In this document: piece by piece, positions 10,864 to 38,858 of the stretch
Position numbering within the stretch: position 1 is the first letter of the stretch
Layout of the letters: the number at the start of each line of letters is the position of its first letter
Origin: an uncultured Methanosarcinales archaeon
GTDB lineage: Archaea; Nanobdellota; Nanobdellia; Woesearchaeales; GW2011-AR9
DNA: 50,372 nucleotides
Direction: 5' to 3'
NCBI GenBank assembly: GCA_964360675.1
Contig: CAYHXT010000002.1
Coordinates: forward strand, 1 to 50,372
Notes under the pieces: generated by a model
Told to the model about the DNA's origin: nothing
Database searches by the model: none
Seen by the model: only the letters and a program-made list of their open reading frames with translations
Position numbers and translations under genes: made by a program

Positions 10864-10875
10864 GGGGAAGAAATA

Positions 10876-22378: not shown

Positions 22379-22386
22379 TTTATATA
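22379..22386 (+). promoter_or_regulatory. TATA box of the pilin-like / giant-ORF unit (leaderless arrangement)
   Basis: TTTATATA is centred about 27 nt upstream of ATG 22410. It follows the T-rich tract that ends the L15e gene. Confidence 0.4.
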
Positions 22387-22409: not shown

Positions 22410-23420
22410 ATGTTAAAAAGAGGACAAATCACTTTTTTCCTAGTATTAGGTATCATAATTCTGCTAGTTTCAGCCGGATTGTTCTTAGCAATCTCCGCAA
22501 TCAAAAAAGCGCCATTGGAAGTTGAAGAAAAAGAAGCGCAAAAAATACCGGGCGTGCGCGAAACCTTGCGCACGTATGTGGAAAATTGCATTGAAGAAAC
22601 CGTAAGCCCAGCCGTCTATTTGCTGGCAATGCAAGGAGGAATAATTTATCCGGATGAGAACGACAATATTCTGCTGACAGATTACGGGATGATAAATTAT
22701 GCCTGGATCAACGGCCTGGACGGAATCTCTACAGAGAAAATGGAAACGGACTTGGCTGATTATCTGGTGGAAAACATTAATTTTTGTTTAAGGGATTTTG
22801 AAACCTTCGCTAAACAAGAGATCATTATTGTTCCTCATTATGGGGAAATTAGTGCTAAAATCAGAATTCTTCCTTCAGTTATAGATGCCGGAATTAATCT
22901 TCCTTTGGAAGCCACTCTACCCAATGGCGATTATATCAATATTGATTCCTTTTCAGCAAAATTAAACAGTGATGTCTACGAAATGATTGTTTTTATAGAA
23001 GAGCTTAATTTTCCAGCAATCAACCCGGAAGATTTCACTAATGCTCCTTATAAGCCGTCAATCCTTCCTTTTGATGAATCCGTAACCATCTATTCTCTCC
23101 AAAGGAGCGATCCCAAAGAACCGTTGCAATTTATCTTTGCGGTACGTGAAGATTCCGCTTCAAATAATCTGCCTTATCTGGAATTCATTCCGGATAAAAC
23201 TTTCACAGTGGGCGACAGATGGCAGGAAGAATTATCTGCAGCAGATCCAGATAACGATTTGTTAAAATTTTCCTCTTCTTCATCCCAGTTTCCGATTACT
23301 GAGGACGGGGCGATTGACGTTGAAATCACTGAAGCCGGGATATTTGAAATTACTTTCTCAGTCGATGACCATCGCGGCGGAAAGGATCAACAAAAAGTCA
23401 GCGTACTGGTGTTAAAATGA
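22410..23420 (+). CDS. type IV pilin-like (class III signal peptide) protein with a C-terminal cadherin-like domain
   Basis: The N-terminus MLKRGQITFFLVLGIIILLV has a basic residue, Gly, Gln, then a hydrophobic helix, matching an archaeal prepilin-peptidase substrate. The C-terminus has AADPDNDLLKFSSSS...ITFSVDDHRGG, like the cadherin-type units at 2076-5460. The stop overlaps the giant ORF start (ATGA at 23417-23420). Confidence 0.65.
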   Translation: MLKRGQITFFLVLGIIILLVSAGLFLAISAIKKAPLEVEEKEAQKIPGVRETLRTYVENCIEETVSPAVYLLAMQGGIIYPDENDNILLTDYGMINYAWINGLDGISTEKMETDLADYLVENINFCLRDFETFAKQEIIIVPHYGEISAKIRILPSVIDAGINLPLEATLPNGDYINIDSFSAKLNSDVYEMIVFIEELNFPAINPEDFTNAPYKPSILPFDESVTIYSLQRSDPKEPLQFIFAVREDSASNNLPYLEFIPDKTFTVGDRWQEELSAADPDNDLLKFSSSSSQFPITEDGAIDVEITEAGIFEITFSVDDHRGGKDQQKVSVLVLK

Positions 23421-26400
23421 ATAATATGAAGAAAAAAATAGATTCCGCGAAAATTAAACGGTTTCTGGCATCTTTCTTCATTTACCTGATGGTATTCAGC
23501 CCGTTCTCAATAGGGCAGGGTGAATCCGGTGCTGCGGTAAATCAGGAAACAAACCTTCCAACAGAATTTCCTGCAGAAAATATCCAGGATGTTTTTGAAA
23601 ATAATCCCACTCCGGAAAACTTTAACAAACTTCCCAACCCCACTGCCGCAGATTTAGAGTTGGTTCAGAACCCGACGCCGGAAAATTTTAATCATCTTGA
23701 TTCTTCAGAACAGGGAACCTATCTCAGCAACGAAGATAATTTCCGGCAGGATTTTGCCGGTGAGTATTATTCTGATCCCGCTAATTGGGGGGCAAATCCA
23801 GAAGCTGACAAAATATTATTTGCCGGAACAAGATTTAGGGATTTATTAAAAGCCGGAACTTCGCAGGTAAGCGCAGCAGAACAATATTTTTCCGATAATT
23901 TCGGCGCGCCATATACATTAGCGATAGTTGCCGATGATTTCATTTTTGATCAGGAAAACAGAATCTTGAAGAACGGAAAAACAAATTTGAAACTAGATGA
24001 TTATACCGGCGATTCAACCATCACCGAGATCAAAGCTACCGCGGACGGTTTCGAAATTTCCAGAAAAGCTGAAGAAAATGAGCAGGTGATTTCCGTTTCC
24101 GGCGAAGAGGAAAAATCTGTCAGTTACGATTCAGAGAAAGGAACTTTCGCTTTCCAACTGCCGGAAGGAAAACCGCACACTTTCAATGTTCCTGCGGCCG
24201 CCAAAGTAAAATTTGCCTTTGATAAAGACAAGATTACCATCACTGGTCCGGCTTCCGGAATTTTTGAATCGGCGAATGATTATGTTCAATTTGATAATCA
24301 TGCCGGGATACTCGTAATCAACGATAACGGGAACATCGAAGCAGAAAATGCAGAAGTCATCACTTCCCTGCTTTATATGGATGGGCGGTTTGTAAAAACC
24401 GGCAGTCAAATCAAGGCCTGGGACGTAGGAAGCGGCGGCAAACAAACCATAGTCGTCGACAAAAATTCCTGCCCGGTAGAAGGCGGCTGCATCGGCGTGT
24501 CAACATTAGGCCAATGGGATGAAAGGCTTCTTGCGCCCAAAGATAAAAACAGGGCCGGCACTCTTGAAATCAACCTGGATGAAATCGACAGCTCTTCTTC
24601 TTTTTATGTTCCATCCGGGGAACCACAAACCAATGAACAAAAAACCGAACAATTACGTCAACAGGCGACAGAATTAAGAAAACCGCGTGAACCCCCTTTA
24701 TCCGGAAAAGATGCCCATGTATGGATCCACAAAAATCAACAAAGCGGTGAAATAACCGTAACCTCTAAGGGCGTAGTTGAAGTGGGCCTGTATGATGCAA
24801 GGGGAGATGCAGCTTCTCCAGTCAAGGATGATTTTAGATACAAAGGAGTTAACGGATTATCAGAATTAGATATGCAATTTGGCCCCAGAACTCAGACTAA
24901 TGTCCGGGGACAGGCAGAATTGAAAAATTCAGAATTTAGGGGCGGAATCTTAACTAATCAGGACGGAGCCGTGTTTAAAATAACTAACGATAATTTTGGC
25001 TTGACGCAAAATGATATTTTTCGTGCTGACTGTTTTGATTGTCAGCAGGGAGAAGCTATAGTCATCCAGAAGTCTATCGCTATTGCGCAGAAAACAAGTC
25101 TTGCGGGAATATTCTCAGAATCAAAAACGGAAAACGTAAAATTAGTGATAACTGTTGATGAGAACGGGAGAACTAGTTTCAAGCCGGACTTAACCGATCT
25201 GGGCTATCTGGCCAGCCAGGTCCCGAAAGATAATGCACAAGTCTCTATGGGAAGAAATTTTTTTATGTCCGTCCCCTGCGGAAATTTTGAATGTAATTTT
25301 AAACTAACCACTGATCCCAGAACCGGAGATCCCGGAGCAGCTTACGAAATTGTTGATCCTTTAAATCCTGCGCAGCCATTGCAGAGAATTGATTATCCGC
25401 TTACTGCTGGAAAGATGCTGGGCGGAGAAATCATTGTGGTTTCACAGGAAAATGTTGATAACGTCAACAAGCTGGCAGACCTAATCGAAAGCGGGAATTT
25501 CAATCAATTATCTGAGCTTGAATTTGATGAAAATGATCCGCAATATTCTGCCTTAAGGAAAAAAATTCTTCTGGAAACCGGAATTAATCTGGATGAAATT
25601 TCTGATCCAAAGTACGTTTCTGAAATCAACGAAATTGTAACCACGGCTAAACGCTCCCGTGATAATTTCCGGAGTTTAGGGATAGAAGTTGATGCTAACG
25701 GAAACCCCCTGACACTTAAAGATCAGCAGCGTATGCGGGAAATCTTAAGCAAGAACGGCGGGGCGGAATTTGATTTATTGACACGGGCTCAACTTGATTT
25801 AGCCAGGACTCGCATTAAAGAGGTTGCGGCGCAGCTCAGCGCCTGCCAAGGGGACGTATATTGTTCAGTAAAGATGGACGATTTGAAAAAAGCTCAGGCC
25901 GATGCAGGAAAAATTCAAAAGCAAAGGGAAGGAGCTTATGAACGCTGGCAGGCAGCAGAAAGAAAAGCGCAGCTTGAAAAGCAGATCAATGAAGCCCGGG
26001 AAAGACAAAAATCCCCTGATAAAGGCATCGACGATATCGATAAAAGAGAATCGATCGATATAGGAAATAAAATTGTTGCCGCCAATAAACAAAGGACGGA
26101 TTTACAAAGAAGAGTTGAAAGCAGCCGGGAGAATTTTGTTAATTTTAGAGATGAGCTTAGGAAAAATATTGAGGCAGAATTATCCACTGCGCAAAAGATA
26201 GGCATCGATTGGGACAAATTTCGTTATGATACTGACTATGTTGCCGCCGTCCTAAGAGATTTTCGCCTTACAGATGCTGAATTTAAGGTTGGATTTGAAG
26301 ATGTGAAATTTTATTATGATCAATACAATCAGTTTACAGAAGAATCTAATTCTCTTGATCAGAATCTAAAAGATTGGAATTCACAGCAGGAAGCATTAAT

Positions 26401-29400
26401 CACTAAATATCGCTGGGAAGGCAAAGATGATGCCGCGGCAGAGATAGCTTTGTTATCAAAACAATACGGCGAAGCTAATGAAATAATCCAGGCATCTCCG
26501 CTGCTGCCGCCGGAAGTAAGGATTAATCTTGGAGCAAGAGCTCAGCAGCAGATAACTGAAGAATCATTAAATCAGGTTTCTATTCTTTATAATTACGGTT
26601 ATGGCGACCAAGCCGGCCAGATGTTATTGTCGCTGGAAAATGCTGCTCCCGAAATTAAAGAATCAGTTGAATATCAAAAAGCAGTAAAATCTCAATTAAA
26701 ATTTGCTCAAGGGGTTGTTGAAGAAAAGATAAGAGAAGAAGAACAGCTTAGATATAGAGAAATGATGAAGCGTTTTGATGAAAAATTCAGCGCAAGTGTG
26801 AGGTTCAGTAAGGCTTTAAAAAATATCAATTTTAATCCGTCATTTGAAGAATATGAAGAAGGAGTTTTTGGTAAACAGATTTTAGAGGTTATAGGTTCCG
26901 GTTTTTCGGCGACTTTTCAAAGCTCTGAAGAAGTTGGCGCGGAAATCTTGGGAGGATTAGCAAATAGGGAAACACTTAGAACAACCACCGCTAAACTTGA
27001 TGAGCAGGCAGCCGCCGAACATAATCGGCAGATAGAAAACCTTTACGAAATTAGAAATTATCTTAAGGCCTATGATGTCCGCGGCTCATCAGCTATACAG
27101 GCTTTTGCCGATGCTCAAAGTGGAATTAGTGGTGAGCAGGTTTTAATTTCTGACGACCCAACAGCAGCATATCTTCAATTTCAATTGACGGGAGAAGTTT
27201 TCAGCGCGGAAGATAAGGAAAGATTAGCCCGGATGGATAATCCTCTGGACAGGCTTGCTTTTACAACGCAAAAAGAAGAAGAATATTCTGATACTATCAA
27301 AGAGCTTGAATTCAATAAATTGGCGAGAGATGCAGAAAACGCCATCATGTTTAATCGCGGCAAGATGGCTGGTGAACCGGAAGCTAAAATGAGGGAAGCT
27401 ATCTCTGTCTGCCCCGAATGTTCCGGTGCAGAAAATTTTCAGCAAAGGGTTAATCAGCTTGATGAATCAGTTACTAAAGAAATTTTTGGTGAAACTTTCG
27501 GCGGCGCTTTTGAGTGGGCAGGAGTAACTTATACACAAAGAACAGAAGAAGAATTTCGTGATATGGCTATCGCTTCTCTCGATGCAACGATTCTATTTGA
27601 CATTGCTGAAATAGGCTTAGCTCCGCTAGCAATAATAGACGCAGTTAATAAAGTTAAATTTCTTAAAAATGCGGTTAAATTAAAATCTTTCAGCAAGGCC
27701 AGATACGTTGAAAGATTAGAAGAAGCATTCGGAACGGCAGCAGATGTCGCTATTTATGCTTCTAGAGAATCGCGAGCTGCTCTGGATGCAGCTAAGGCCG
27801 CCCAGAGATCGGCCAATACTGCTGATGCAATCGTAGAAGCCAGAAAGTCAGTAGATTTCACTCAGCGGGCGATCGAAGCTGAAGTTGAAGCCGGTCTGGC
27901 AGCTAAAAAATATACTGAAGTCCTCCGAGCCGGGAATCCGTCCGATTTTGATTTAGAAGCACTCATATTACGCAACCGGGGAGTAAACAACATTTATGAT
28001 GAGACAAAAATTCTTAATCAGGCTCAGAGAGAACTTGACGCTGCAAAAAAGATCGGAGATGTTGCTGCAGAACAAAAGGCATTAGCAGCAATCTCTCAAT
28101 CACAAGATACTCTTCAACAAGCTAAAGCGCAAATAAATTATTATGATAATCTTCTTCAGGCATCTAAGATTGCCGGGCCGGAGAAAGGAAAAATCAGGCA
28201 ATTGTGGGACAATACTTTTGGCCAAACCATTGGAGTCAGAAACGGATTAAAATTTGGTTCTGCCGGCGAAGAAGTCATTGCTGCTGAAAAAAATTTCCGC
28301 GTGGCGGCGCAAATATTCAACGAAGCTAAAATTAATGCCCGTTTAATCGGAGATACTGCCGAAGCGGCAGTCTCCAGAGCCAGATTAGCAAGAGCCGAAG
28401 ATACTTTGCTTAAAGCTGCTGACGAAGTTGACACAGCTTATCTCATCAGAAAAGGAGAAATCGGCCGGTCGGTAATCAAATCAAGACTGCAGCAGGCAAG
28501 AGCGGCAAGTCTTTCTGCTAAATCAGATGAATTATTAGCGGCGATTGATTCTGAAGGCATCACTAAACTGGATAATCTGCTTTATAATCCTGTTTTAAGG
28601 TTAGTGCCGGATGGCGCTGGATTAAGATTTGCTGTCAGCGAAGATGCTTCACCAGCATTGAAGCAGTCCGCAATGGAAGGAAACGAATTATTGGCAAAAG
28701 CAGATGAAGCTACGCTTGCCGAAGGCGCAATAACTAGTTCTGCACGGGCAGAAGGAGAAGTTGAACTGGTATTGCTGGAAGGTCTTGCAGACAGCGAGTT
28801 TGCCATAGCTAATGAGGTCAAATCAAAAAGAATTCAGGCTGCTACTGGTGAATTTGTATTAGAAGAAGCGCCCCAAAGAAAAATAATCAATAACGAGCTG
28901 GTTGAACCCTGCAACCTAGCTGCAGCAGCAATTTACGGATTGGCTATTCCTTGTGTAGAACCTAAAGGCGTAACTAAAACGGCGGAAGTTCCGGAAACGC
29001 CTCTCAGCGAAGAATCCACCCGCCTGGCGGAAGAAGTTGCTGTCGTCGAAAGAGCCACCATTCCGCCCCCTGATATAGCTACGCTTCAAAAACCGACTAA
29101 GGAAGGATTGGAACATTTAATTGGCGAAGCAAAAATAGGATTTAAAAAATATAATGCCGGCCGCAGGCAACTGGGTTTAGAACCGGATAAAAGTTTAGAT
29201 GAGTTTGTTAAAGATTACGTCGGGAGAGATTTACAGGATGCAGGCATTGATGCAGGACTTCCTGACGATTTAGTCGGCATCGGCATATCAAAAACCGGCG
29301 ACGAAAAAGTTGATGCCATCATCGACGTGCTTGAAGGAAGAACTTCCGGAGAATTAGATGCTGAAGAACTGAGGAAATTAGAAATCGCCGAAAGTTTAAA

Positions 29401-32400
29401 GATCGGACAGGGCGCAGAAGGAATAGTTTATGCTCTTCCGGACGGTTCGGTCATAAAAGTTAAAAATACAGATAGCGCTATATCAATGCCTTTCCGGGAG
29501 CAGGCCAGAAGATTAAATGCGCTTTGCGAGAAAGGTTTAGCTCCCTGCGTTTCCAGAAGCGGAGAATATTTCTATCAGTCAGAAAGAGCCAGATATAACT
29601 CCGTACAGGATGCTGTTTTGGAGCGGTTGTCAGAAGAGGGCAGAAGGGAATATCTGGAAGTCTATGATTTACGCAGAGCAGACAGAATTACCGAAGATAA
29701 TTATATTGAATTAAGGGCCGCGGTGATCCAAAGGGCCAGAGATGAAGGAAGGCTGAATGATCTGGAACTTGCAGCCGACGATTTCTTTAATAGTTTGAAA
29801 GAATCAAACCTGGAAATCTTAGACCCTTCATGGAAGAATCTGCATTGCGCCAACGAAGAATGCACTAAATTCTTAACCATCGATGTTGGCTTTTCCGTCA
29901 CCGGCGAAAGGTCTAAAATTTTACTGGAAGGTGTGGCTGAAAATTATAAAAATAATCTGCTTAACGGAAAGGGCCAGATCATAGGCGGGGAGAGAGGCCA
30001 GGAATTGATTGATGAAGCTGCTGAAATCTTAAGACGGGAAAGAGATGCCGGAAAAGGAGCGCCTGCAGCCGGAGAAGCCGGCCAAATCCGCCCGTTGACA
30101 GAAGCAGAGATCCAAGATCCGCAAGAATTAGAGGCCTGGAATGAAATTGCCGCCGCCGCCAGATTTTCTGAAGAAAGATTGTCTCTTGAACAGGTGAACA
30201 GATTAGAAGACAACAGATTAAGTATTCCAGAAGATGATTTCTACGCAATAACATTTGATGTTCCTAAGAGTGCGCGCCAGTCGTTAGGCTTTGATGTAGG
30301 TGCGGTCATTAAAGTTCAGTCAGATACTCCGCCTCAGGGCGTGGCTCTGGTGACGGATGAAGCCGACATACTTTCCGATCTAAGCGAAGTTGCGGTACCG
30401 GTGCTGCTGAGGGATGACAGATATTATGTCGTGCAGAAATTTGAAGGTCTGCGCCTGGATGAGATGTCGGCAGATCTACGCGCCAAGATCAGGCCGCAGA
30501 TAGAATCTTTCCGGGAAGCGCTGGTCGCTAAAGGTTATGAAATGGATAATTATGGCGGACTTGTTTACGACTCTTTAAAACGTGAATTGAGATTAATCAA
30601 TCCGCGCGTGGTTAAAAAATCATCTCTGCCGCCGGATGAATTACGTGATTTGCACAACCAGAAAATAGATGACATTCTTAACCGGGGTGTTGTCACGCCG
30701 GAAGAGAAGGCAGAAGCGCTTGCTGAAGCGCGCAGAATATTGGAAGAAGAAGGAGCTTTCGCACGGCCGCCGGTTGAAAATGTTGTTGTTCCGCAAGAAG
30801 CTGCTGCCACAGATTTGGGTTCAGCAAATGCCGGCCAGAATGTCAAGATTCGTTCACGCGAAGACCTGTATGAAGGCAGTTTACTCAGTAAAGAAGGCGA
30901 TAATATTATCATTGAGACTACTGAACCTCGCGGCGGCATATTTGGAGCAATACTTCCTGACCGAAAAATACAGCAGCAGATCCCTCTTGAGGATGTTATT
31001 ATTTACGGAGAACAAGTACACATTCGTTCGGTTTCGAAGAGGGGCGTGAATAGGCAGGAACTAATCGGAGATGTCTACGTAGGAAATTATTTGGGAGAAA
31101 ACAATGCTTATCTCTACCTTAGTGTAAATGGAAAACCGACGAGGATTCATAAGGCCAATCTTGATCTTGGCAGTCTCGACAAAGCGATTGTTTCAGATCC
31201 GGCTTCTGAATTTATACTTAACCAGCAGAAGATCCTTGACCAAGTCAATAGAGTGCCGATCGTCGACGGGCGGCAGGTACTAATCGTCCATGTCGATCCA
31301 AACAGCCTGCGAATACAAGGTGTGGGCGCTGTTCCTTCGGAAGTGTCCGGCAACAGCGTTCCTGTACGCATGGTTATTGATGCTGAGACGGGACGGATCG
31401 CTGATGTCGTTGGCGAAGAGAGGATTGCGAAACAGTATCGTGGTGCTTTAGTAAACAAACCATTATACGAAGAATTAAGTATTGTAAGAAGAGATATTGT
31501 TAATGGTTGCGCCATTGCCGGCAGCGCCATCCATGGATTGGCTTTGCCTTGCGCGGATGTTGCTGTGGGGAGATTGGAAGCGGAAGTTCCGGTTCCGGTC
31601 GAATCAGGTGTCGGGATCACGGGGCCAACTTTAGATCCAGAATTAAGAAAATGGAAAGAAGGAGTTTCCGGGAATAATCTGGAAAACATTGTTGAGAGGG
31701 GAAAAACATTATCTCCCGGACAAGAGTTTCAGGTTGGAGAAGATATAGGGTTTAGTTTTATAACCAAAGATGGAGAGGCGGTAGAAGCTGTTGAACGATT
31801 GAAATATGGCCCCTCCGGATTTACTATTGAAGTAAGGAGAGCAGATAATAATGAATATATTGCTTCACATGACTATCAATTAATTATGGGTGGAGATAGG
31901 TTGGGAGTAGAATCAACTTATGTGGTTGAAAAATATCAAGAAGCGGGAATAAATCAAAGAATTTTCCAGCAGATGTCGGAAATTCATTCTAATGTTCCAG
32001 AAGTTGAAGCGAGTTTAGGATATGATAACAGATTGATCTATGGTAATTTCATCATAAATAACCCAGATGCAACAGCACTTGATGCTTTGAAACAAACACC
32101 AGCCCATAAAATCAGGGAAAGAACTGGCTGGGAAGTAGATCTTGAAAAATCTAATCTGCCTAATTCAATCGTGTATAAAAGAGCAGAAGTTGCTCCTGAA
32201 ATTTCGCCTATCAGAGAGTCCATTCCTCCAGAAGTATCCGGCGTAATGATAGTATCGCAAAAAGGAGAACTTTCTCAAATCGACGATGTGGGAATAAAAG
32301 AGTTGCCCGTAATCAATCTTGAAGAAGAACTGATCCCCGAAGAGGTGATAACTGTTAATAACGTTATTGCTGAAAGCGACGGGATAGTGGTTCGTTCGAA

Positions 32401-35400
32401 CAATAATCTTTATTTTATCAGCGACGAAGGAATTTATCCGGTGGGGATGGATAAGGAATATTCTTTCCGGCCAAAGAAAGCTGGAGGGCAAGTCAGCCTT
32501 CCTCCGGAACAGGAATCCGCATTGAAAACTATTTATGGACAAGTTAAGCTGAACCAAAGAGATGCTCAAGTATTAAATCAGCAGGACAAATTCGGTTTGC
32601 TTTTAATTGAAGCTGCTAAGGATAAAAAAATTCAAATCCAGACCGGCAGCGGGGCTTTAGATCATTTAATGATAAATTCTCACGGTTCCCATGATAATTA
32701 CCTGAAAGAATTGGATCGAGTAATTGAAAATAATGATAATCTCAAATATCTGCATGAGCAGTTCAGGCAGCAGGGTATCGAACCTCTTACCACCGTTAAA
32801 AATCCTTATCCTGATGAAAGATTGGACATTGCCGCAACATATAATCCAAGATATGAAGCTGTTGACGGTTCTTTTGTGGAAGGTTCATTTACCTATAGAA
32901 TTTTTGCGACAGAAGAAGAACTTTTAGATTATACTCGCAGGATCACCGGGCGCGAAATTGAGGATGTTGAAGAAGCTAAAAAATTAATCGCGGAAAGCCA
33001 GGTTAAAGGAGTAGCGGGACACGAAGCAGCTCATCATGCATTCTACAGGATGCTAGATGAAGAAGAAAGGATATTTTTTACGGACTATGTCTGGAGTACT
33101 GATGATGAAGCTCTGGTTAAAGCAAGGGAATTTATCGGATCTCGACCAGTTTATGCAAAAACTTCAGAAATATCAGAAGAATTATACCAAAGTATAATTG
33201 CCAATGAAGTTTTTGCATACAGATTAGATTTCAATATGCAGGGCATAGGCTTGCATAGTGATTTAAATGTCCTCCCCTCCGAAAGAGAATTAGCTATTTT
33301 TGAGCAGTTTGAGGTGCTGCCTCCTAAAGAAAAAAGAATCCCTGCTTTAGTCAATAACATTGCGCTTCAGCCGCCGCAATCATTCGCAGACATAACAGCA
33401 GAAGGGCAATGGTTTAGGGCAAGATTAAATGACGGAACTTCTGTCGAAGGCAGATTTTCCAGGATTGAAGGCGATGAAATAGTGTTCACAAGATATGAAC
33501 GAAGAGAAGGCCTGCTGAGCTGGTTTTTAGATGACAAAATTGAACCCGGAACCAGAATCAGCAGGAATGATTTTGAGCCGTCAAGTTTGATTGTTGGTGG
33601 AAGAACAAACGTGAGATTTTCAACCAGCAAGGGAACATTTTATGGTCGATATTCAGGAGACAGCCCGGACGGGATTAAAATACTTGATTCTTCTGGAAAT
33701 GAAATAATTGTTCCAAGAAAAGGATTAATCAAAGATTCTGTCGTTGCTCAGGGTGAAGTAATTGAAATTAAGGCTGTCGATAACGTTGCAGCATACAATG
33801 GCAGGTATCTGGCTGAAACGGACACAGAGATATATTTAGATGTCGATGGCAAGGTCACTAAACTAAGTAAAAACAATTTAGACTTAACTACACTGCAGAA
33901 GAAAGAATTTGCGGAAGAACTGGGCGTTCCTCCAGTTTCTGCGGAAGCAGGAGTTGGGTTGGGCGAACAGATTCTTGATGTTCTTCCCGCAGATTTCAAA
34001 CGCGAAACTTCTGCAGTTTACAAAAGCGAAGGTCTCTTTGAATTAAACGGTAAAATCTACCGCCGGGGCTCTGAGGGAAATTGGAAGCAGAAAAGAGAAG
34101 GATTCTGGAGTTTTCTCGGAGATAAAGATATCTCTGACGAAGAGTATTTTGATGTAGCGGAAGAATTAAACATCGCTGAATCAAATGCATTTCCGCAAAA
34201 AACAGCAGCAAAAGTTCCTTCTGAAACTTATTCTGCTCCGGAAGTTTTCACGGGGGGACAGATGGTTCCCGATAAAGAAATAGCTGAATTTTTTGATAAC
34301 GCCGATATCAATTGTCCGACCGGCGGAGCTTTAGTAGGACAAGCTGCTGCAGGACCCTGTAATTTTGAAATCAGCACCGGAAGAAAAAGATTATCCAACT
34401 TGAAGGAAGGCGATGAGGTTCGTCTGGTATCTTTAAGGGGGAATCATTATTACGGTGAATTTATATTTGCAGACGAGAATACTTTATTATTAAGGCTTCC
34501 GGATAGTACTCAAAATCAAATTAGGCTGGATAGGATTGATTTGAACAGCCTGGTTTCTCAGGATAATTTTGTCAGGATAATAAGAACTGATGGAACTTCA
34601 GCTTTTGGCAAATATGCCGGGGAAGGGGAAGAGTATATCCGGCTGATTGATGCCAATAGAAATATCATTCTTTTAGATAAAAATAATCTCCGATATGATT
34701 CGCTGGTATCGGCAGGCGATGAGATTGAAATGACTTCGCTCCGCGGCTCTTCAATCAAGGGCGTATTTTCTTCAGAGTCAGAAACGCATATTTTTTATCT
34801 TGACGAAAATGGTTTTCCCAGAAAAGCCGGCAAGGATCAGCTTGCGGATGTTAAAAGAATAATTTATGAACCCCTGGCTGCTGATGAGATAAGCAGTGAT
34901 TTTATTATTGATAATCAACAATTATTTGCCAAAAATCCTTCTTACGCTTTAGGGTTGGATGAACCTGCTTCAGAACCAATCGCTTATAAAAAAATAATGT
35001 TTTCCGATGGGATTAGAAGAGAAGTTCACTATTCATTAAATGACCTAAAAATTGCTGAAGATGTCGGGCTTATTTATGAAAATGTTCCTCCTGCGAGGCT
35101 TAAACGGGGGCAAGGATATACTTATGTGGTGTTGAATGATGGTTCTTTAGTCTTTGGCGAGGTTCATGATGGCCTGGAATTTGGTGTCAAGCATCTGCAT
35201 CTGGCTAACGGAAAGCCGGTCAAAGCGGCCGGTGAAATCTTTATCGATGAATCCGGAAGATATTTATTCAATCTGGAAAGCGGATCTTTCACTCTGGTAT
35301 TAAGGCGGGAATATCGTGTTAGTGAAGGATTATTAAGAGAACAAATGCATGATGTTTTCTATCGATATTTTGGTCAGGACGGAAATTATATCAAAGCTGT

Positions 35401-37561
35401 TATTAATAAGCCCGTTCGCCCTTCATTAGATGAATTAGCAGACCTTTGCTTTAAAAATCAAGGAATAAGGCTGCCTATCTGCGGAAGTAATAGAGATATT
35501 AAACAATTAATTGAAGAGAAGTATCCGGGCTGGGGTGTTTCTGAAGCAGTCGAACCATGCGCCGTCGCCGGCAAGGCCATTTTCGGATTGGCTCCATGTC
35601 TTAGCTCTTCCAGGAATATTATCGATTTAGATGAAGCTGAACCTATCCCTCTCGAAAGAATAATCTCCACAGAGAGAATTTCAGGGATTAAAGCAACACT
35701 TACCGATCCAACCAGTTTGATGGTGCCCGGAGAAGATGATTGGAACGATATGGTAACTATTATTAAAAAACATGAAAAAGAAACAGCTTTGTCGGAGTCA
35801 GACTTAGAAGAATTAATAGAAAATTCTGGCGGGTACATTGGTCGCGGTGCAGAAGGCGTAGTTCTTGCCGTTCCTGAAGAGGTAAGAGTTGCGCTGGGAA
35901 TCAACAAGCCGGCAGTGATAAAAATTAGAAATTATATTAAACCTACGGTCGAGGATGTTGCTAACACTTTCCCTGAGCAGGCAGAACTTCTAAACAGCAT
36001 GGCCGGCAAGGGGGTGGCGCCGGAAGTGTACAAGTCGGGAGAAAATTATTACATTGACGAGAAGTTGGAAGGCGAAACCATTCGAAACTTGATGTATAAG
36101 TCTTTAAGCCCAGAGCAGCTGAAAGCATACAAGCTAGCAAAGGATGATAAAGAAAAAAAACTTATACTTGCAACTGCTCTTTCACCAGAACAAAAAGCGC
36201 AGTTAAATATATTGCTGGATGAGCTTACCGATACCTTAGCTGAATCCGGAGTTGCCATTGATGATTTCCATGGGGGGAATGTAATGCTGGTGCAGACTCC
36301 AGAAGGGACTAAAGCAAAAGTTGTGGATTTGGGATATGCATATACCGACGATTCAGAAACTTTAAGAACGCTGTACGACATCAAGAAAAGAAAACTGATG
36401 GCTGCCGGGGGCTATGAAGCTGATGCAGAAAAACTTATAAAAATCAGGGTAACCCAAAGGCGCGCGGCAGAGAATACTATCGATTTCTCCAGCGATTTCC
36501 CTCTAGAAACGGAAGCTTTAGAAATTGCTGAGGTCAGGCAATTAAAAAGCGCATTACGGGCTATCAGTGTAGAAAATGAAAAAGTATTTTCATACATTGT
36601 CAGCGCTGGTGAAGGGCAGCGGGTGCGAAGGATATACGAGGCCAATTTAGATCCGCTTGGAGTAGCGCTGAAGCTTGACGCTGAAGGAGTATCTCATTCA
36701 GGGGAAGGAATTTTTGAATACCGTGGAAATAAATTTATCCGCGATCAGGAAGCCGGATGGGTAGAGAAGAGAAGGTTCTGGTTTGATAAAAAAGCTGATG
36801 CAGACACCGCCGAGCTGCTGGATGCTGAAAAATCAAGGCTGCTGGAAGAAGGGTTGTTTCCACTTCCTGAAGTTCGACTGGGATCCTGTCCCCGTGCAGG
36901 CGGCGCGATAGTCGGCGGCGCAGGACAAGTTCCCTGCATACCTTTTGGTTTATCCTTGGAAGAGGTAGTGATGAGATTGCCTCCTGCTGAACTTCCAAGG
37001 CCGCAAGTTGTTTCAAAAGTTGCCGGATATGATAATACGGTAAGTAATCTTTACGATAGCATAACTACTGAAAACGTTGAAGAAATCTTCCAAAATAAGC
37101 TGGAGCATCTTGGTACAGAAATCTACGGGGGAAAAGCGATTGCTTATATCCATGACGACGGAAGGGTGCAGGTAGTGTTCCTTACAGAAACGGAAAAGAC
37201 GCACCACCGCCAAGCTTTGGGAACGATTATCGGCGGGGAGAAAGGAAAATTAGTCTACGAAGGGCAATACGATAACTATTTGATTGGTGATCTAACTGAA
37301 AGGTCTTTCGGCTTTTCATTTCAATACGATAAATCTACTGGTAAAATAATCGGCATCCAGGCAAGTTCGCAGATATCTAATCTTCAAAAAAGCAAGGGCG
37401 CAACCGGATGGACGCTTCCTGAACCGGTGATTAGTTTTGTCGAACAGGAGATGCTGGAAAGGATAGATCTAGATTTAATCGACGAATTTTTAGTTGACAG
37501 CCCCATCAATGAATGGATCGACAAAAACAGACTGCCGGTTGCGGCTGCCGAAGCAAATTAG
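23417..37561 (+). CDS. giant secreted mosaic protein (4,714 aa)
   Basis: A single uninterrupted frame of 14,145 nt. Signal-like N-terminus (FLASFFIYLMVFSPFSIGQG). A beta-rich region is followed by about 1,000 aa that are A/E/K/Q-rich and coiled-coil-like. Two protein-kinase-like domains, an HExxH module, eight repeats of about 50 aa and five Cys-bracketed G/A loops are present. All antisense ORFs inside are short and low-complexity. Confidence 0.85.
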   Translation: MNNMKKKIDSAKIKRFLASFFIYLMVFSPFSIGQGESGAAVNQETNLPTEFPAENIQDVFENNPTPENFNKLPNPTAADLELVQNPTPENFNHLDSSEQGTYLSNEDNFRQDFAGEYYSDPANWGANPEADKILFAGTRFRDLLKAGTSQVSAAEQYFSDNFGAPYTLAIVADDFIFDQENRILKNGKTNLKLDDYTGDSTITEIKATADGFEISRKAEENEQVISVSGEEEKSVSYDSEKGTFAFQLPEGKPHTFNVPAAAKVKFAFDKDKITITGPASGIFESANDYVQFDNHAGILVINDNGNIEAENAEVITSLLYMDGRFVKTGSQIKAWDVGSGGKQTIVVDKNSCPVEGGCIGVSTLGQWDERLLAPKDKNRAGTLEINLDEIDSSSSFYVPSGEPQTNEQKTEQLRQQATELRKPREPPLSGKDAHVWIHKNQQSGEITVTSKGVVEVGLYDARGDAASPVKDDFRYKGVNGLSELDMQFGPRTQTNVRGQAELKNSEFRGGILTNQDGAVFKITNDNFGLTQNDIFRADCFDCQQGEAIVIQKSIAIAQKTSLAGIFSESKTENVKLVITVDENGRTSFKPDLTDLGYLASQVPKDNAQVSMGRNFFMSVPCGNFECNFKLTTDPRTGDPGAAYEIVDPLNPAQPLQRIDYPLTAGKMLGGEIIVVSQENVDNVNKLADLIESGNFNQLSELEFDENDPQYSALRKKILLETGINLDEISDPKYVSEINEIVTTAKRSRDNFRSLGIEVDANGNPLTLKDQQRMREILSKNGGAEFDLLTRAQLDLARTRIKEVAAQLSACQGDVYCSVKMDDLKKAQADAGKIQKQREGAYERWQAAERKAQLEKQINEARERQKSPDKGIDDIDKRESIDIGNKIVAANKQRTDLQRRVESSRENFVNFRDELRKNIEAELSTAQKIGIDWDKFRYDTDYVAAVLRDFRLTDAEFKVGFEDVKFYYDQYNQFTEESNSLDQNLKDWNSQQEALITKYRWEGKDDAAAEIALLSKQYGEANEIIQASPLLPPEVRINLGARAQQQITEESLNQVSILYNYGYGDQAGQMLLSLENAAPEIKESVEYQKAVKSQLKFAQGVVEEKIREEEQLRYREMMKRFDEKFSASVRFSKALKNINFNPSFEEYEEGVFGKQILEVIGSGFSATFQSSEEVGAEILGGLANRETLRTTTAKLDEQAAAEHNRQIENLYEIRNYLKAYDVRGSSAIQAFADAQSGISGEQVLISDDPTAAYLQFQLTGEVFSAEDKERLARMDNPLDRLAFTTQKEEEYSDTIKELEFNKLARDAENAIMFNRGKMAGEPEAKMREAISVCPECSGAENFQQRVNQLDESVTKEIFGETFGGAFEWAGVTYTQRTEEEFRDMAIASLDATILFDIAEIGLAPLAIIDAVNKVKFLKNAVKLKSFSKARYVERLEEAFGTAADVAIYASRESRAALDAAKAAQRSANTADAIVEARKSVDFTQRAIEAEVEAGLAAKKYTEVLRAGNPSDFDLEALILRNRGVNNIYDETKILNQAQRELDAAKKIGDVAAEQKALAAISQSQDTLQQAKAQINYYDNLLQASKIAGPEKGKIRQLWDNTFGQTIGVRNGLKFGSAGEEVIAAEKNFRVAAQIFNEAKINARLIGDTAEAAVSRARLARAEDTLLKAADEVDTAYLIRKGEIGRSVIKSRLQQARAASLSAKSDELLAAIDSEGITKLDNLLYNPVLRLVPDGAGLRFAVSEDASPALKQSAMEGNELLAKADEATLAEGAITSSARAEGEVELVLLEGLADSEFAIANEVKSKRIQAATGEFVLEEAPQRKIINNELVEPCNLAAAAIYGLAIPCVEPKGVTKTAEVPETPLSEESTRLAEEVAVVERATIPPPDIATLQKPTKEGLEHLIGEAKIGFKKYNAGRRQLGLEPDKSLDEFVKDYVGRDLQDAGIDAGLPDDLVGIGISKTGDEKVDAIIDVLEGRTSGELDAEELRKLEIAESLKIGQGAEGIVYALPDGSVIKVKNTDSAISMPFREQARRLNALCEKGLAPCVSRSGEYFYQSERARYNSVQDAVLERLSEEGRREYLEVYDLRRADRITEDNYIELRAAVIQRARDEGRLNDLELAADDFFNSLKESNLEILDPSWKNLHCANEECTKFLTIDVGFSVTGERSKILLEGVAENYKNNLLNGKGQIIGGERGQELIDEAAEILRRERDAGKGAPAAGEAGQIRPLTEAEIQDPQELEAWNEIAAAARFSEERLSLEQVNRLEDNRLSIPEDDFYAITFDVPKSARQSLGFDVGAVIKVQSDTPPQGVALVTDEADILSDLSEVAVPVLLRDDRYYVVQKFEGLRLDEMSADLRAKIRPQIESFREALVAKGYEMDNYGGLVYDSLKRELRLINPRVVKKSSLPPDELRDLHNQKIDDILNRGVVTPEEKAEALAEARRILEEEGAFARPPVENVVVPQEAAATDLGSANAGQNVKIRSREDLYEGSLLSKEGDNIIIETTEPRGGIFGAILPDRKIQQQIPLEDVIIYGEQVHIRSVSKRGVNRQELIGDVYVGNYLGENNAYLYLSVNGKPTRIHKANLDLGSLDKAIVSDPASEFILNQQKILDQVNRVPIVDGRQVLIVHVDPNSLRIQGVGAVPSEVSGNSVPVRMVIDAETGRIADVVGEERIAKQYRGALVNKPLYEELSIVRRDIVNGCAIAGSAIHGLALPCADVAVGRLEAEVPVPVESGVGITGPTLDPELRKWKEGVSGNNLENIVERGKTLSPGQEFQVGEDIGFSFITKDGEAVEAVERLKYGPSGFTIEVRRADNNEYIASHDYQLIMGGDRLGVESTYVVEKYQEAGINQRIFQQMSEIHSNVPEVEASLGYDNRLIYGNFIINNPDATALDALKQTPAHKIRERTGWEVDLEKSNLPNSIVYKRAEVAPEISPIRESIPPEVSGVMIVSQKGELSQIDDVGIKELPVINLEEELIPEEVITVNNVIAESDGIVVRSNNNLYFISDEGIYPVGMDKEYSFRPKKAGGQVSLPPEQESALKTIYGQVKLNQRDAQVLNQQDKFGLLLIEAAKDKKIQIQTGSGALDHLMINSHGSHDNYLKELDRVIENNDNLKYLHEQFRQQGIEPLTTVKNPYPDERLDIAATYNPRYEAVDGSFVEGSFTYRIFATEEELLDYTRRITGREIEDVEEAKKLIAESQVKGVAGHEAAHHAFYRMLDEEERIFFTDYVWSTDDEALVKAREFIGSRPVYAKTSEISEELYQSIIANEVFAYRLDFNMQGIGLHSDLNVLPSERELAIFEQFEVLPPKEKRIPALVNNIALQPPQSFADITAEGQWFRARLNDGTSVEGRFSRIEGDEIVFTRYERREGLLSWFLDDKIEPGTRISRNDFEPSSLIVGGRTNVRFSTSKGTFYGRYSGDSPDGIKILDSSGNEIIVPRKGLIKDSVVAQGEVIEIKAVDNVAAYNGRYLAETDTEIYLDVDGKVTKLSKNNLDLTTLQKKEFAEELGVPPVSAEAGVGLGEQILDVLPADFKRETSAVYKSEGLFELNGKIYRRGSEGNWKQKREGFWSFLGDKDISDEEYFDVAEELNIAESNAFPQKTAAKVPSETYSAPEVFTGGQMVPDKEIAEFFDNADINCPTGGALVGQAAAGPCNFEISTGRKRLSNLKEGDEVRLVSLRGNHYYGEFIFADENTLLLRLPDSTQNQIRLDRIDLNSLVSQDNFVRIIRTDGTSAFGKYAGEGEEYIRLIDANRNIILLDKNNLRYDSLVSAGDEIEMTSLRGSSIKGVFSSESETHIFYLDENGFPRKAGKDQLADVKRIIYEPLAADEISSDFIIDNQQLFAKNPSYALGLDEPASEPIAYKKIMFSDGIRREVHYSLNDLKIAEDVGLIYENVPPARLKRGQGYTYVVLNDGSLVFGEVHDGLEFGVKHLHLANGKPVKAAGEIFIDESGRYLFNLESGSFTLVLRREYRVSEGLLREQMHDVFYRYFGQDGNYIKAVINKPVRPSLDELADLCFKNQGIRLPICGSNRDIKQLIEEKYPGWGVSEAVEPCAVAGKAIFGLAPCLSSSRNIIDLDEAEPIPLERIISTERISGIKATLTDPTSLMVPGEDDWNDMVTIIKKHEKETALSESDLEELIENSGGYIGRGAEGVVLAVPEEVRVALGINKPAVIKIRNYIKPTVEDVANTFPEQAELLNSMAGKGVAPEVYKSGENYYIDEKLEGETIRNLMYKSLSPEQLKAYKLAKDDKEKKLILATALSPEQKAQLNILLDELTDTLAESGVAIDDFHGGNVMLVQTPEGTKAKVVDLGYAYTDDSETLRTLYDIKKRKLMAAGGYEADAEKLIKIRVTQRRAAENTIDFSSDFPLETEALEIAEVRQLKSALRAISVENEKVFSYIVSAGEGQRVRRIYEANLDPLGVALKLDAEGVSHSGEGIFEYRGNKFIRDQEAGWVEKRRFWFDKKADADTAELLDAEKSRLLEEGLFPLPEVRLGSCPRAGGAIVGGAGQVPCIPFGLSLEEVVMRLPPAELPRPQVVSKVAGYDNTVSNLYDSITTENVEEIFQNKLEHLGTEIYGGKAIAYIHDDGRVQVVFLTETEKTHHRQALGTIIGGEKGKLVYEGQYDNYLIGDLTERSFGFSFQYDKSTGKIIGIQASSQISNLQKSKGATGWTLPEPVISFVEQEMLERIDLDLIDEFLVDSPINEWIDKNRLPVAAAEAN
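29370..29990 (+). other. protein-kinase-like domain 1 inside the giant ORF
   Basis: Glycine loop IGQGAEG (29402-29422), VIKVK lysine (29456-29458), catalytic-loop-like DPSWKN (about 29822-29839) and Mg-binding-like IDVG (about 29878-29889). Confidence 0.55.
33020..33034 (+). other. HExxH zinc-metallopeptidase motif inside the giant ORF
   Basis: GVAGHEAAHHAFY, with H-E-A-A-H at codons 3202-3206. A possible third ligand Glu lies in IANEVFAY about 65 aa downstream. Confidence 0.5.
35790..36420 (+). other. protein-kinase-like domain 2 inside the giant ORF
   Basis: Glycine loop IGRGAEG (35837-35857), VIKIR lysine (35921-35923), DDFHGGN catalytic-loop-like segment (about 36260-36282) and VVDLGYA (about 36321-36341). 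Confidence 0.6.
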
Positions 37562-37609: not shown

Positions 37610-38233
37610 TTATTTTTTTCCGGACAGTTTCTTCAGATGCAAATATCTGGAATCATCATCAAAAATCATGTACGTCTGCAGCTGATTCCAGTACAAGCCT
37701 ACGCCGCCGGGATTGATTAAATATCTTGAGTGCGGCTTTAAGCTGACCATTCCACCAGCCAGCCCTATTTCGGTGATTTTTCTTTGTTCATCTTCGCAAA
37801 ATAAAGTCGGTTGGTGCGAATGGCCAAAAAAACAAATGTCAATAAAAGCCGGCAATCGTTCAAATACTTCTTTTGCCTGTTCCACGGTCAATATCCGTTC
37901 ATTAAATGGTGCGTGAATCAAGTAATAATTGAAAAAGAAGTGATTTAAAGGCAGGGAAGCCAAGTATTCTAAATTTCCTGGAGTTATTTTAGCAGCTATT
38001 TTATTGCCAGTATTAGTGCTGCCGGCAAGAACCTTTTCTTCGTGATTTCCACGGACAGCCAGGCATCCATTTTTTATCACGGCATCAATGCAGCGGTGGT
38101 CATCATACGATGTCCCGTTCTGTACTATGTCTCCTAAACAAAAGTATTGGTCAATATCATCTTTTGTTTCAGCAAAGAATCTTTCCAAAGCTTCATAGTT
38201 TCCTTGTACATCTGAAAATATTCCATAGCGCAT
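37610..38233 (-). CDS. calcineurin-like metallophosphoesterase (YfcE/MJ0936-type)
   Basis: Ordered motifs FSDVQGN, LGDIVQNG, RGNHE and FGHSH. 207 aa. Confidence 0.8.
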   Translation of the reverse strand: MRYGIFSDVQGNYEALERFFAETKDDIDQYFCLGDIVQNGTSYDDHRCIDAVIKNGCLAVRGNHEEKVLAGSTNTGNKIAAKITPGNLEYLASLPLNHFFFNYYLIHAPFNERILTVEQAKEVFERLPAFIDICFFGHSHQPTLFCEDEQRKITEIGLAGGMVSLKPHSRYLINPGGVGLYWNQLQTYMIFDDDSRYLHLKKLSGKK

Positions 38234-38378: not shown

Positions 38379-38858
38379 ATGGGAGAAAATCTTTTAGGCA
38401 GATACTGGGGAATTAATTCTGACGGCAGTTCTAACATCGGGCCGGAAGGTATCCGTGCTTATGGCCGATATTCGTTGGTAAAAGAAATCCTCGTAGAAGA
38501 TAAAAAAGGCCTATCACTGCTGGAAGAATTAGTTGATAAAGCAAATAATTATGTGTGTAGTGTTACCACATTTGATGTAGTATCTCCTTCCTTAAGATTT
38601 AGGTTAGAACCTGAAGATTTTAGAAAAAAAATGGAAGAATTAGACCGCAACCGAAGAATCAAGCATGATGCTCTCATTTCGCAATTGACAGCCATGAATA
38701 GGTATCTTTTTAAGAATTACCAAACCAGGAGGTCAGTTCCTGTCGGCGGGGTTTATTCGTTAGCTCCGGAAACCTTAAGTCCGGCTGTTGACCGTGATGC
38801 TGTCGCCAGTTGGGCTGGTTATTTAGTCATTGGAATCTACCAAAACCGAAAAAAATAA
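38379..38858 (+). CDS. hypothetical protein
   Basis: 159-aa ORF with ordinary composition. No motif recognised. Confidence 0.45.
   Translation: MGENLLGRYWGINSDGSSNIGPEGIRAYGRYSLVKEILVEDKKGLSLLEELVDKANNYVCSVTTFDVVSPSLRFRLEPEDFRKKMEELDRNRRIKHDALISQLTAMNRYLFKNYQTRRSVPVGGVYSLAPETLSPAVDRDAVASWAGYLVIGIYQNRKK

Follow-up and report, generated by a model that had tools for sequence, protein, structure and literature searches.

Polymorphic toxins such as CdiA, Rhs/YD, MafB and LXG (Zhang/Aravind classification) join a conserved N-terminal export or delivery region to exchanged C-terminal cassettes. The MARTX toxins of Vibrio and related bacteria are single giant polypeptides with a variable string of effector domains. 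These MARTX effector domains act in the cytosol of the target cell. Among the DPANN archaea, the SPEARE giant surface proteins of Nanohaloarchaeota are said to have been described by Hamm in 2019. To our knowledge, the ways in which DPANN archaea attach to and exploit their hosts are largely unknown, and we know of no effector repertoire defined for them. Here we describe a giant gene at positions 23417..37561 of a 50,372-nucleotide stretch of archaeal metagenomic DNA (contig CAYHXT010000002.1 of assembly GCA_964360675.1), hereafter called the window. The gene and all its parts named below lie on the plus strand; it starts with ATG and runs through 4,714 codons without an internal stop. With a probability of roughly 0.55, we read its product as a Sec-secreted, polymorphic exoprotein with multiple effectors, which would carry cofactor-dependent enzymes into another cell.

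At the N-terminus of the giant protein, a signal peptide is followed by a beta-rich head and then by a helical stalk. Five Cys-bounded loops divide its C-terminal 2,900 residues into modules A to E. Module A consists of the kinase-like domain K1, a pseudokinase, two repeats and a tail; module B of a GNAT-like part (B1), an HExxH part (B2), three repeats and a tail; module C of three repeats and domain X; module D of the kinase-like domain K3 and a tail; and module E of domain E.

Three features of this layout are shared with polymorphic toxins: a conserved N-terminal part is followed by exchanged C-terminal cassettes, two of the cassettes (X and E) recur at the C-termini of unrelated proteins, and a short element occupies the junctions, by analogy with VENN, PT-TG and PT-HINT. 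Unlike those toxins, the giant protein is archaeal, has a Sec signal only and lacks the known filament, Rhs and pre-toxin domains; it also carries a tandem array of five to six modules rather than one toxin, and no co-directional immunity gene accompanies it. Pfam searches with the whole protein and with each module found no pre-toxin element (VENN, PT-HINT, PT-TG, DUF4157 and others), the pre-toxin position being occupied by the family-specific Cys loop, with or without a tail domain. Like a MARTX toxin, it is one giant polypeptide with a variable string of effector domains, but its effector-like modules are C-terminal, whereas those of MARTX lie in the middle of the protein. Neither self-comparison nor Pfam revealed glycine-rich A/B/C repeats of the MARTX kind, and no type I secretion genes were found. 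The inositol hexakisphosphate (InsP6)-activated cysteine protease domain (CPD; Peptidase_C80) gave no Pfam match at E values up to 1 for the whole protein and up to 10 per module.

The nanohaloarchaeal SPEARE giants contain Ig-like and beta-propeller domains and a VirB4/TraG-like ATPase, and are considered by their authors to lack other enzymatic domains (La Cono/Reva 2023, PMC10266531). Both they and the giant protein described here are Sec-exported giants of DPANN symbionts proposed to act at the host interface, but the architectures differ, a distinction drawn from the published description. None of the SPEARE Pfam families (Ig-like, beta-propeller, laminin-type, VirB4/TraG-like ATPase) was detected in the giant protein. 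A further archaeal system, the hypervariable Ig-protein module of Thermococcales, comprises a large secreted protein with shuffled variable parts and has been discussed as a polymorphic-toxin analogue (PMC8416519). It differs in having Ig domains, of which the giant protein has none, and in varying through downstream genes rather than through an in-frame array.

A family of giant proteins with exchanged C-terminal modules

An earlier note, written from the letters of the window alone, had failed to match the protein to any described family, and our searches led to the same result. Neither the whole protein nor any of ten modules searched separately had a credible match in Pfam or NCBIfam, the modules were equally without match among PDB sequences, and phmmer with the whole protein found nothing there either. 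The exact protein was not on record. A word-indexed homolog search, a method too insensitive here, returned nothing for aa 4042-4714 and four proteins only for a domain X profile, and a pattern scan of genome collections with peptides of the giant protein yielded no relatives; relatives of the locus came through the synteny of the ribosomal protein gene rpl15e. When aa 3515-4714 were compared exhaustively by phmmer with 1.84 billion cluster representatives, 202 proteins were retrieved at E <= 1e-3, 27 of them at E <= 1e-30, and the whole giant protein was then mapped onto the best 150 of the 202. In the following, retrieved proteins carry P numbers and loci carry L numbers.

These comparisons defined a family of giant proteins, unnamed so far, in Nanoarchaeota and Woesearchaeota genomes, in which the first ~1,850 aa are conserved and the C-terminal modules are swapped. 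The collinear homologs that the earlier note had proposed to look for in metagenomes were present as orthologs of 2,394 to 4,731 aa at the same locus in independent assemblies. Protein P0016 (2,875 aa) shares aa 11-1877 of the giant protein and continues with two kinases and B1, P0009 (2,394 aa) shares aa 12-1859 and continues with domain E, and P0003 (4,018 aa) shares aa 12-1716, followed by two kinases, module C and B1. The shared part spans aa 12-1821 in P0008 (3,484 aa) and aa 420-1855 in P0002 (3,119 aa). P0052 (4,731 aa) shares the first ~920 aa and continues with HopA1, a pseudokinase with repeats and three HExxH modules; its HopA1 type III effector domain (Pfam, E = 2.5e-18) stands where the giant protein has K1.

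The same pattern was seen in the GTDB representative loci L007, L008, L009 and L012, obtained via rpl15e, all of which have the conserved N-terminus and a different continuation; L008, L009 and L012 share the N-terminal part and differ in their C-terminal modules. An HExxH module follows the stalk in L012, and the giants of L001 and L004 end in B1. N-terminal homology ends 10-45 aa past loop 1, and the later modules vary in identity and order between orthologs. We found no description of the giant family or of its loop motif in the literature, although prior mention among surveys of archaeal polymorphic toxins is possible.

Cys-bounded loops at the module junctions

The six modules counted in the earlier note are delimited by five conserved Cys-bounded loops, which that note had missed. 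All five have the form C-x12-15-C and are hydrophobic and Ala/Gly-rich (73-79% A/G/I/L/V/F/P), with the consensus [DE]xV[EDN]P-C-x-[IVL]-[AG][AG][AG]-A-I-x-G-L-A-x-(P)-C and a longer, GG-rich subtype. Type 1 comprises loop 1 (CNLAAAAIYGLAIPC; 28910..28954, aa 1832-1846), loop 2 (CAIAGSAIHGLALPC; 31508..31552, aa 2698-2712) and loop 4 (CAVAGKAIFGLAPC; 35558..35599, aa 4048-4061), which usually have V[EDN]P just before them. The longer, GG-rich type 2 comprises loop 3 (CPTGGALVGQAAAGPC; 34313..34360, aa 3633-3648) and loop 5 (CPRAGGAIVGGAGQVPC; 36887..36937, aa 4491-4507), which are preceded by a conserved tail and followed by the two cassette-type modules. The motif occurs 34 times in the giant protein and 19 retrieved proteins, mostly clear family members. 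We regard this Cys-bounded, Ala/Gly-rich loop as a new, previously undescribed conserved junction motif.

Homology breakpoints within the family cluster at the loops, namely, at aa 1855-1877 (individually 1855, 1859 and 1877), 2715-2743 (2715, 2729, 2738 and 2743), 3617-3649 (including 3632-3649), 4038-4084 and 4468-4510. This within-family list was used in place of a global breakpoint-versus-loop statistic (P = 0.026), which was swamped by domain X matches. The longest exact DNA word shared among the five loops of the window is 10 nucleotides, and conservation therefore acts on the peptide; an interpretation of the loops as DNA-level recombination repeats was rejected on this ground. Transmembrane helices were likewise rejected, 12-15 residues being too short. 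The only internal segment of comparable hydrophobicity, aa 1392-1410, contains D and E. In an AlphaFold model, loop 5 has a pLDDT of 40-48, which fits a flexible element.

In AB toxins such as diphtheria toxin, the botulinum and tetanus toxins and Pseudomonas exotoxin A, a disulfide-bridged loop is nicked outside the cell and reduced inside it. The loops of the giant protein resemble this arrangement in being short two-Cys loops placed exactly between functional parts. They differ in being hydrophobic and Ala/Gly-rich rather than basic protease sites and in numbering five per protein, and here the disulfides and the cleavage would both have to be presumed.

Kinase-like domains

Two protein-kinase-like domains had been noticed in the sequence, and both have full motif sets (aa 1997-2158 and 4142-4306). 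K1 (29273..30016, aa 1953-2200) contains GQGAEGIV (aa 1997-2004), VIKV (aa 2012-2015), FREQA (aa 2026-2030), LDPSWKN (aa 2135-2141) and IDVG (aa 2155-2158), and K3 (35672..36451, aa 4086-4345) contains GRGAEGVV (aa 4142-4149), VIKI (aa 4167-4170), FPEQA (aa 4185-4189), DDFHGGN (aa 4282-4288) and VDLG (aa 4303-4306). Both domains thus carry GxGAEG[IV]V, VIK, the alpha-C Glu (F.EQA), DxxxxN and xDxG in canonical order, and these motifs are conserved across an alignment of 14 family copies. A possible degenerate third kinase, also suspected before, is the pseudokinase at aa 2221-2422 (30077..30682), which keeps VIKV and the hinge and has lost the G-loop, the catalytic D..N and DFG; the block of aa 2190-2713 is 58% identical in P0052. 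Self-comparison showed the three kinase-like segments to be related to each other.

The 14-copy profile matched 52 PDB sequences at E <= 10. Almost all of these are protein kinases, matched over the catalytic loop and DFG, and the lowest E value was 0.003. A profile built from the three internal copies alone retrieved no kinases from PDB, the matches appearing once homologs were added, and K1 and K3 had no Pfam match when searched as modules. Aligned by hhalign with protein kinase A (PKA), the family was collinear from the G-loop to DFG (P = 0.0016, probability 16%). From their motifs and these alignments, K1 and K3 likely have a protein-kinase-like fold. With about 210-250 aa, they contain almost nothing beyond DFG (no APE or GHI region), and in this they recall minimal effector kinases and small atypical kinases, such as OspG/NleH/HopBF1 and RIO/Bud32. 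The likeness extends to the G-loop, the VAIK Lys, the alpha-C Glu, D..N, DFG and the short remainder after DFG, but K1 and K3 have no significant sequence match to these proteins, and the comparison consists of generic kinase profile matches only.

GNAT-like, HExxH, repeat and tail modules

B1 (31628..32170, aa 2738-2918) is a possible GNAT (GCN5-related N-acetyltransferase). Its homologs are found in P0016, P0003 and P0127, and the motif V..YQ(E/G)(A/V)G(I/V)N, read as V..YQEAGIN (motif A) in the giant protein, is present in three of the four copies, P0016 having R for Q. When a profile of the four sequences was compared with PDB, four of the eight weak matches were GNATs aligned on motif A (best E = 0.055), which points weakly to this assignment.

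B2 (32294..33316, aa 2960-3300) is a putative zincin-like metallopeptidase. The HExxH module reported earlier is borne out by its homologs: HEAAH (aa 3202-3206), the sole HExxH in the giant protein, and a Glu about 60 aa downstream (E3264) are invariant in all five copies, namely, those of the giant protein, P0052 (two), P0026 and P0014. This Glu lies in NEVFAY (aa 3263-3268) in the giant protein and in [AS][ND]EVFAHR in three of the other four copies. The B2 profile retrieved nothing relevant among PDB sequences, and B2 had no Pfam match.

Eight repeats of about 50 aa had also been described. Self-comparison recovered them in three blocks, repeats 1-2 at 30830..31186 (about 50-60 aa each), repeats 3-5 at 33401..33901 and repeats 6-8 at 34403..34861. 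Their profile weakly matched a designed beta-barrel and Asl2047, the protein of PDB entry 3hfn, which we take to be Hfq, and the homolog P0034 gave weak KOW/Agenet matches. A small SH3/Sm-like barrel is a plausible fold for the repeats. Two related tail domains of about 70 aa, found by self-comparison, precede the type 2 loops: tail 1 (33974..34195, aa 3520-3593) has counterparts in P0052, P0127, P0150 and P0007 as well as in tail 2 (36647..36862, aa 4411-4482).

Domains X and E and the downstream gene

The unassigned globular part that had been placed at 34990-35450 turned out to be a well-defined domain. Domain X (34976..35488, aa 3854-4024) follows the pattern YTYV..DG..FG.V.D..E.GVKH.HLANG..V..AGE...FNL.SG.FT and ends with a C-terminal Cys pair. 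The top matches included 83 homologous segments; in 65 cases the segment lies no more than 30 aa from the end of its protein, at the C-terminus, the carriers ranging from 100 to 5,700 aa; the invariant or nearly invariant residues are Y, E, K, H, E, N and S. Its AlphaFold2 model (pLDDT 94.3) had no neighbour among PDB structures (best E = 0.11). In BFVD it matched three uncharacterised viral proteins (A0A0P0YMH7, E5EQ39 and A0A3G5AB55) at E ~1e-8, with template-modelling (TM) scores of 0.65-0.71 and 16-21% identity, and the only named match was a Hyperionvirus protein.

Domain E (36986..37558, aa 4524-4714) is the terminal, cassette-type module, with the motifs LTE..THHR, whose His pair is at aa 4596-4597, and FGF..QYD..GKIIGIQ. 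It is terminal in 26 of its 28 homologous segments and has the invariant residues H-H, K, D and Q; the core of its AlphaFold2 model has a pLDDT above 90, and no neighbour was found among PDB structures (best E = 0.18). X and E behave as cassettes at the C-termini of proteins that have little else in common: P0078 joins E to Pretoxin-HINT, P0065 joins it to HEAT and GT2, and P0141 combines X with Fic. Among 58 other carriers of X or E there are single cases with Pkinase, Gln_deamidase_2 and ankyrin, and most are without any Pfam domain.

Downstream of the giant gene, and convergent to it, lies a metallophosphoesterase gene (37610..38233, minus strand; Pfam Metallophos_2). The same subfamily follows domain-E genes in L093 (11890-12492), which is an orthologous locus, in L091 (12393-12919), which has a different giant and a different locus, and in L087-89 (L087 7192-8142), where it adjoins a PT-HINT plus E gene. 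The L091 copy is split or pseudogenised and stands beside an ADP-ribosylglycohydrolase. The subfamily was absent after the giants without domain E in L001 and L004, and also in L094. Going by this neighbourhood, the metallophosphoesterase may tentatively be regarded as an enzymatic antidote to domain E, or as its partner or antagonist. We also considered whether domain-E genes are followed by a conserved family of small immunity genes, and found this unsupported: a convergent 168-aa gene in this position is common to L091 and L092, but the 173-aa gene of L094 is not related to it, and no such gene is present in the window.

It is at these cassettes that the strongest rival explanation applies, according to which the giant protein is an antagonistic polymorphic toxin that kills or inhibits competing archaea or bacteria by contact, with X and E as the toxins and neighbours such as the metallophosphoesterase protecting the producer. 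The conserved N-terminal part with variable C-terminal cassettes and the fusion of E to Pretoxin-HINT would suit such a toxin, as would the co-variation of the downstream gene with the terminal domain (metallophosphoesterase in the window, L093, L091 and L087, and not in L001 or L004) and the 168-aa gene common to L091 and L092. The downstream gene is, however, convergent rather than co-directional and encodes an enzyme instead of a typical small binding immunity protein, and L094 has neither candidate partner family. Moreover, most of the payload (kinases, pseudokinase and GNAT-like part; in relatives also HopA1 and Fic) is of the kinds expected in effectors that manipulate a host rather than in killing toxins, classical polymorphic toxins have one terminal toxin and not five or six modules, and Pfam detects no known polymorphic-toxin secretion or pre-toxin domain in the giant protein. 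We consider contact-dependent killing unlikely, though it deserves to be kept in mind, and hold to the reading of an effector exoprotein.

Signal peptide, head, stalk and cysteines

The signal-like hydrophobic N-terminus noticed earlier corresponds to a Sec-type signal peptide (23417..23518, aa 1-34) with a K-rich n-region, the h-region FLASFFIYLMVFSPFS and the c-region SIG/Q. It forms the second-highest hydropathy peak of the protein, and the same n/h/c layout is found in eight homologs with complete N-termini. The conserved head that follows (23519..25786, aa 35-790) is mostly beta-rich, contains three short Cys pairs and looks helical over its last ~100 aa. It is common to P0016, P0009, P0008, P0003, P0052, P0025, P0024, P0020 and P0026; its family profile had zero matches among PDB sequences, and it has no Pfam match.

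Next comes the helical stalk (25787..28909, aa 791-1831). An A/E/K/Q-rich region of ~1,000 aa had been described here, in agreement with the composition that we measured for residues ~800-1800 (47-56% A/E/K/Q/R/L and 4-10% G+P). In P0016, P0009 and P0002, as well as in loci L004, L009 and L012, conservation of the stalk reaches to about aa 1855-1892. In its middle lies the most hydrophobic internal segment of the protein, RDMAIASLDATILFDIAEIGLAPLAIIDAV (27539-27661, aa 1375-1415), which is conserved in P0016, P0009, P0002, P0008 and P0003 and could be a membrane-interacting element.

The close Cys pairs pointed out before in the head extend to every Cys of the protein: all 26 cysteines fall into 13 pairs, each pair at most 17 residues apart, against a mean of 4.3 and a maximum of 14 paired cysteines in 20,000 shuffles. 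Nine homologs showed the same tendency, with complete pairing in six (8/8 to 26/26) and nearly complete pairing in three (20/24, 16/17 and 12/14). Such pairing is typical of extracytoplasmic disulfides.

A signal peptide, a disulfide-stapled beta-rich head, a long stalk and small beta-barrel repeats would also befit a surface adhesin or envelope scaffold that serves attachment only and delivers nothing, the enzyme-like modules being binding or degenerate. One kinase copy is clearly degenerate, the partner protein described below is pilin-like, further PKD/Ig surface proteins are encoded in the window, and the nanohaloarchaeal giant surface proteins have been interpreted as attachment or secretion structures (PMC10266531). 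Against a purely adhesive role, K1 and K3 keep all their catalytic motifs across 14 copies and HExxH is invariant, the invariant polar residues of X (E, K, H, E, N, S) and E (H, H, D, Q) are typical of active sites, and Pfam detects no Ig, cadherin or lectin domain in the giant protein. As rapid module exchange combined with strict motif conservation suits a payload better than an adhesin, we judge this explanation improbable and continue to favour a protein that delivers effectors.

Gene order, operon and integrity of the gene

The giant gene is directly preceded by a gene for a 336-aa pilin-like partner protein (22410..23420, plus strand), whose stop overlaps the ATG of the giant gene by 4 nucleotides (ATGA). 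The N-terminus of the partner, MLKRGQ/ITFFLVLGIIILL, is a class III (type IV pilin-like, or prepilin-type) signal peptide; the protein has no Pfam match. A putative promoter, the box TTTATATA (22379..22386, plus strand), was read from the sequence about 27 nucleotides before the ATG of the partner gene. By the general spacing of archaeal TATA boxes, it is likely the promoter of a two-gene operon with a leaderless or short-leader mRNA.

Partner proteins with 49-60% identity are encoded directly upstream of the giant genes of L001, L002/3, L005/6, L007, L008, L009, L012 and L093; all start with M.KRGQ[IV]T.FL.., the KRGQ[IV]T motif being kept in every one of these loci. The order rpl15e, pilin-like gene, giant gene is found in five Nanoarchaeota-type loci (L001, L002, L005, L009 and L012), the genes of L007 and L008 are the same, rpl15e standing 4-5 kb upstream, and the pilin-like gene and the giant gene are seen in L003, L006 and L093, where rpl15e is cut or off the contig. 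The contigs of P0016, P0009 and P0052 likewise have rpl15e, then a 336-351-aa gene with a 4-nucleotide overlap into the start of the giant gene, then the giant gene itself. That of P0002 (L093) carries the pair and starts too near it to reveal rpl15e. Downstream, a backbone of a 233-241-aa gene, PLD and NurA is common to the window, L001 and L005, and L004 and L093 share at least the 233-aa gene.

The ribosomal protein L15e gene immediately upstream and a NurA-like gene in the window speak for an archaeal setting. The closest L15e proteins in one-genome-per-species archives are 78-81% identical and include those of metagenome-assembled genomes (MAGs) labelled Nanoarchaeota, Nanoarchaeia and Woesearchaeota, alongside some from binning projects that bear placeholder labels. 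This places the organism among the DPANN archaea, within the Nanoarchaeota/Woesearchaeota type.

An open reading frame (ORF) of 4,714 aa at 41% GC is beyond the reach of chance, and GC content and skew across it are continuous with the flanks. The join between stalk and K1 is collinear in L001 (tblastn, aa 3-2164), and independent metagenome fragments cross the later junctions, P0011 (97% identity) at loop 3, P0004 (76%) at loop 4 and P0015 (82%) at loop 5, P0001 being also among the fragments that span loops 3-5. In the closest NCBI MAG ortholog (L093), the gene is split into a 346-aa N-terminal ORF (1263-2303) and a 3,119-aa ORF (2502-11861), by a frameshift, a stop or an assembly error. Giant ORFs assembled from metagenomes are easily mis-joined when they contain repeated elements, no other record of the exact protein exists, and the L093 ortholog lies in two ORFs. 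Even so, an artefact of assembly or annotation, that is, a chimeric join of genes or strains or a read-through pseudogene, is very hard to credit given 4,714 codons without a stop, a uniform composition, collinear orthologs at the same locus in independent assemblies, junction-spanning fragments of 76-99% identity and the collinear L001.

A probable multi-effector exoprotein

Under the reading that we favour, a secreted multi-effector protein, the first ~1,850 residues with their disulfide-stapled beta-rich head and helical stalk would form a common scaffold for attachment and delivery. The C-terminal 2,900 residues would be an exchangeable payload of two minimal kinases, a pseudokinase, GNAT-like and HExxH parts, X and E, with barrel repeats interspersed. 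The giant protein would be made from a two-gene operon together with its pilin-like partner. The five Cys-bounded loops, which mark the module joints, stand at the very points at which such a protein would have to be unfolded or cut. They may be closed by disulfides outside the cell and could act as flexible joints, as sites of nicking or as membrane-active sites, and the modules could be separated or released on reaching another cell's reducing cytoplasm. ATP is required by kinases and acetyl-CoA by GNATs, and such modules can therefore act only inside a cell; as the protein is exported, we infer that this should be another cell.

The earlier note had already compared the layout to a multi-effector toxin or a host-manipulation polyprotein, and module exchange, the X and E cassettes, HopA1 in a relative and the lack of any named family all speak in favour of that comparison. 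Concerning the target, we lean towards manipulation of the symbiont's host rather than killing of a competitor, because of the module types (kinases, pseudokinase and GNAT-like part, with HopA1 and Fic in relatives), because the DPANN lifestyle is symbiotic and because no co-directional immunity gene follows the giant gene.

Several observations weigh against this picture. No module of the giant protein is significant against Pfam, NCBIfam or PDB sequences, the statistics for the kinases and the GNAT are marginal, and X and E, although confidently modelled, have no PDB neighbour. Some module boundaries have no loop (for example, at aa 2201/2213, 2913-2961 and 3811-3857), and the loops are modelled at low confidence. 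Finally, none of the known domains for translocation, pore formation or autoprocessing (CPD, HINT, VENN) could be found in the giant protein, and no co-directional immunity gene was found downstream of it.

A bolder and rather doubtful extension concerns the loop itself, which might be a new inter-module device, a disulfide-locked joint that is nicked, inserts into the membrane, or both, and so passes the enzymes one by one into the host without a secretion machine. In sequence and disulfide framing, the loops recall viral internal fusion loops, e.g., GAAIGLAWIP of Ebola GP2.

If this extension holds, the family would represent the first system of effector delivery to be defined in non-halophilic DPANN archaea, and X and E would be new enzyme folds. 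The locus, conserved in position and hypervariable in payload, offers a testable set of candidate effectors consisting of a scaffold and exchangeable putative enzymes. It also contributes two domains that are widespread, are modelled with confidence, contain invariant polar residues and lack a solved structural relative. To these it adds the conserved motif of the junctions, which could serve as a new type of signal for processing or translocation. Together, the rpl15e/pilin-like/giant synteny and the Cys-loop pattern provide a handle for mining symbiont effectors.

Other genes in the window

Two genes, one for a DUF3232 protein and one for a type IB topoisomerase of eukaryotic type (38379-40186, plus strand), lie between the giant locus and the backbone of the 241-aa gene, PLD and NurA. 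The pair is missing from the syntenic loci L001 and L093 and looks like an insertion. Further downstream (42053-42565, plus strand), a stand-alone Peptidase_C39 of 170 aa, a member of the double-glycine leader peptidase family, is encoded with no fused ABC transporter. As pure speculation, the substrates of this peptidase might include Gly-rich sites, for instance the Cys loops that contain GG.

On the other side of the giant gene (5501-7102, minus strand), this archaeal genome has a gene for a YkuD L,D-transpeptidase that includes a domain for peptidoglycan binding, and a YkuD gene is also found near the L091 giant (1174-2010), which suggests interaction with bacterial or pseudomurein walls. 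Two adjacent genes at 2076-5460 (plus strand) encode proteins of the secreted type that carry PKD, Big_9 and cadherin-like Ig domains; these are candidates for conventional adhesins distinct from the giant protein. Three radical SAM genes are present in the window, two of them adjacent (236-1690, plus strand; 14883-16019, minus strand), and no link between them and the giant gene was found. A tRNA gene missed by ARAGORN was recognised through Rfam (55 bits) at 44461-44569 (minus strand); it spans 109 nucleotides and probably contains an intron.

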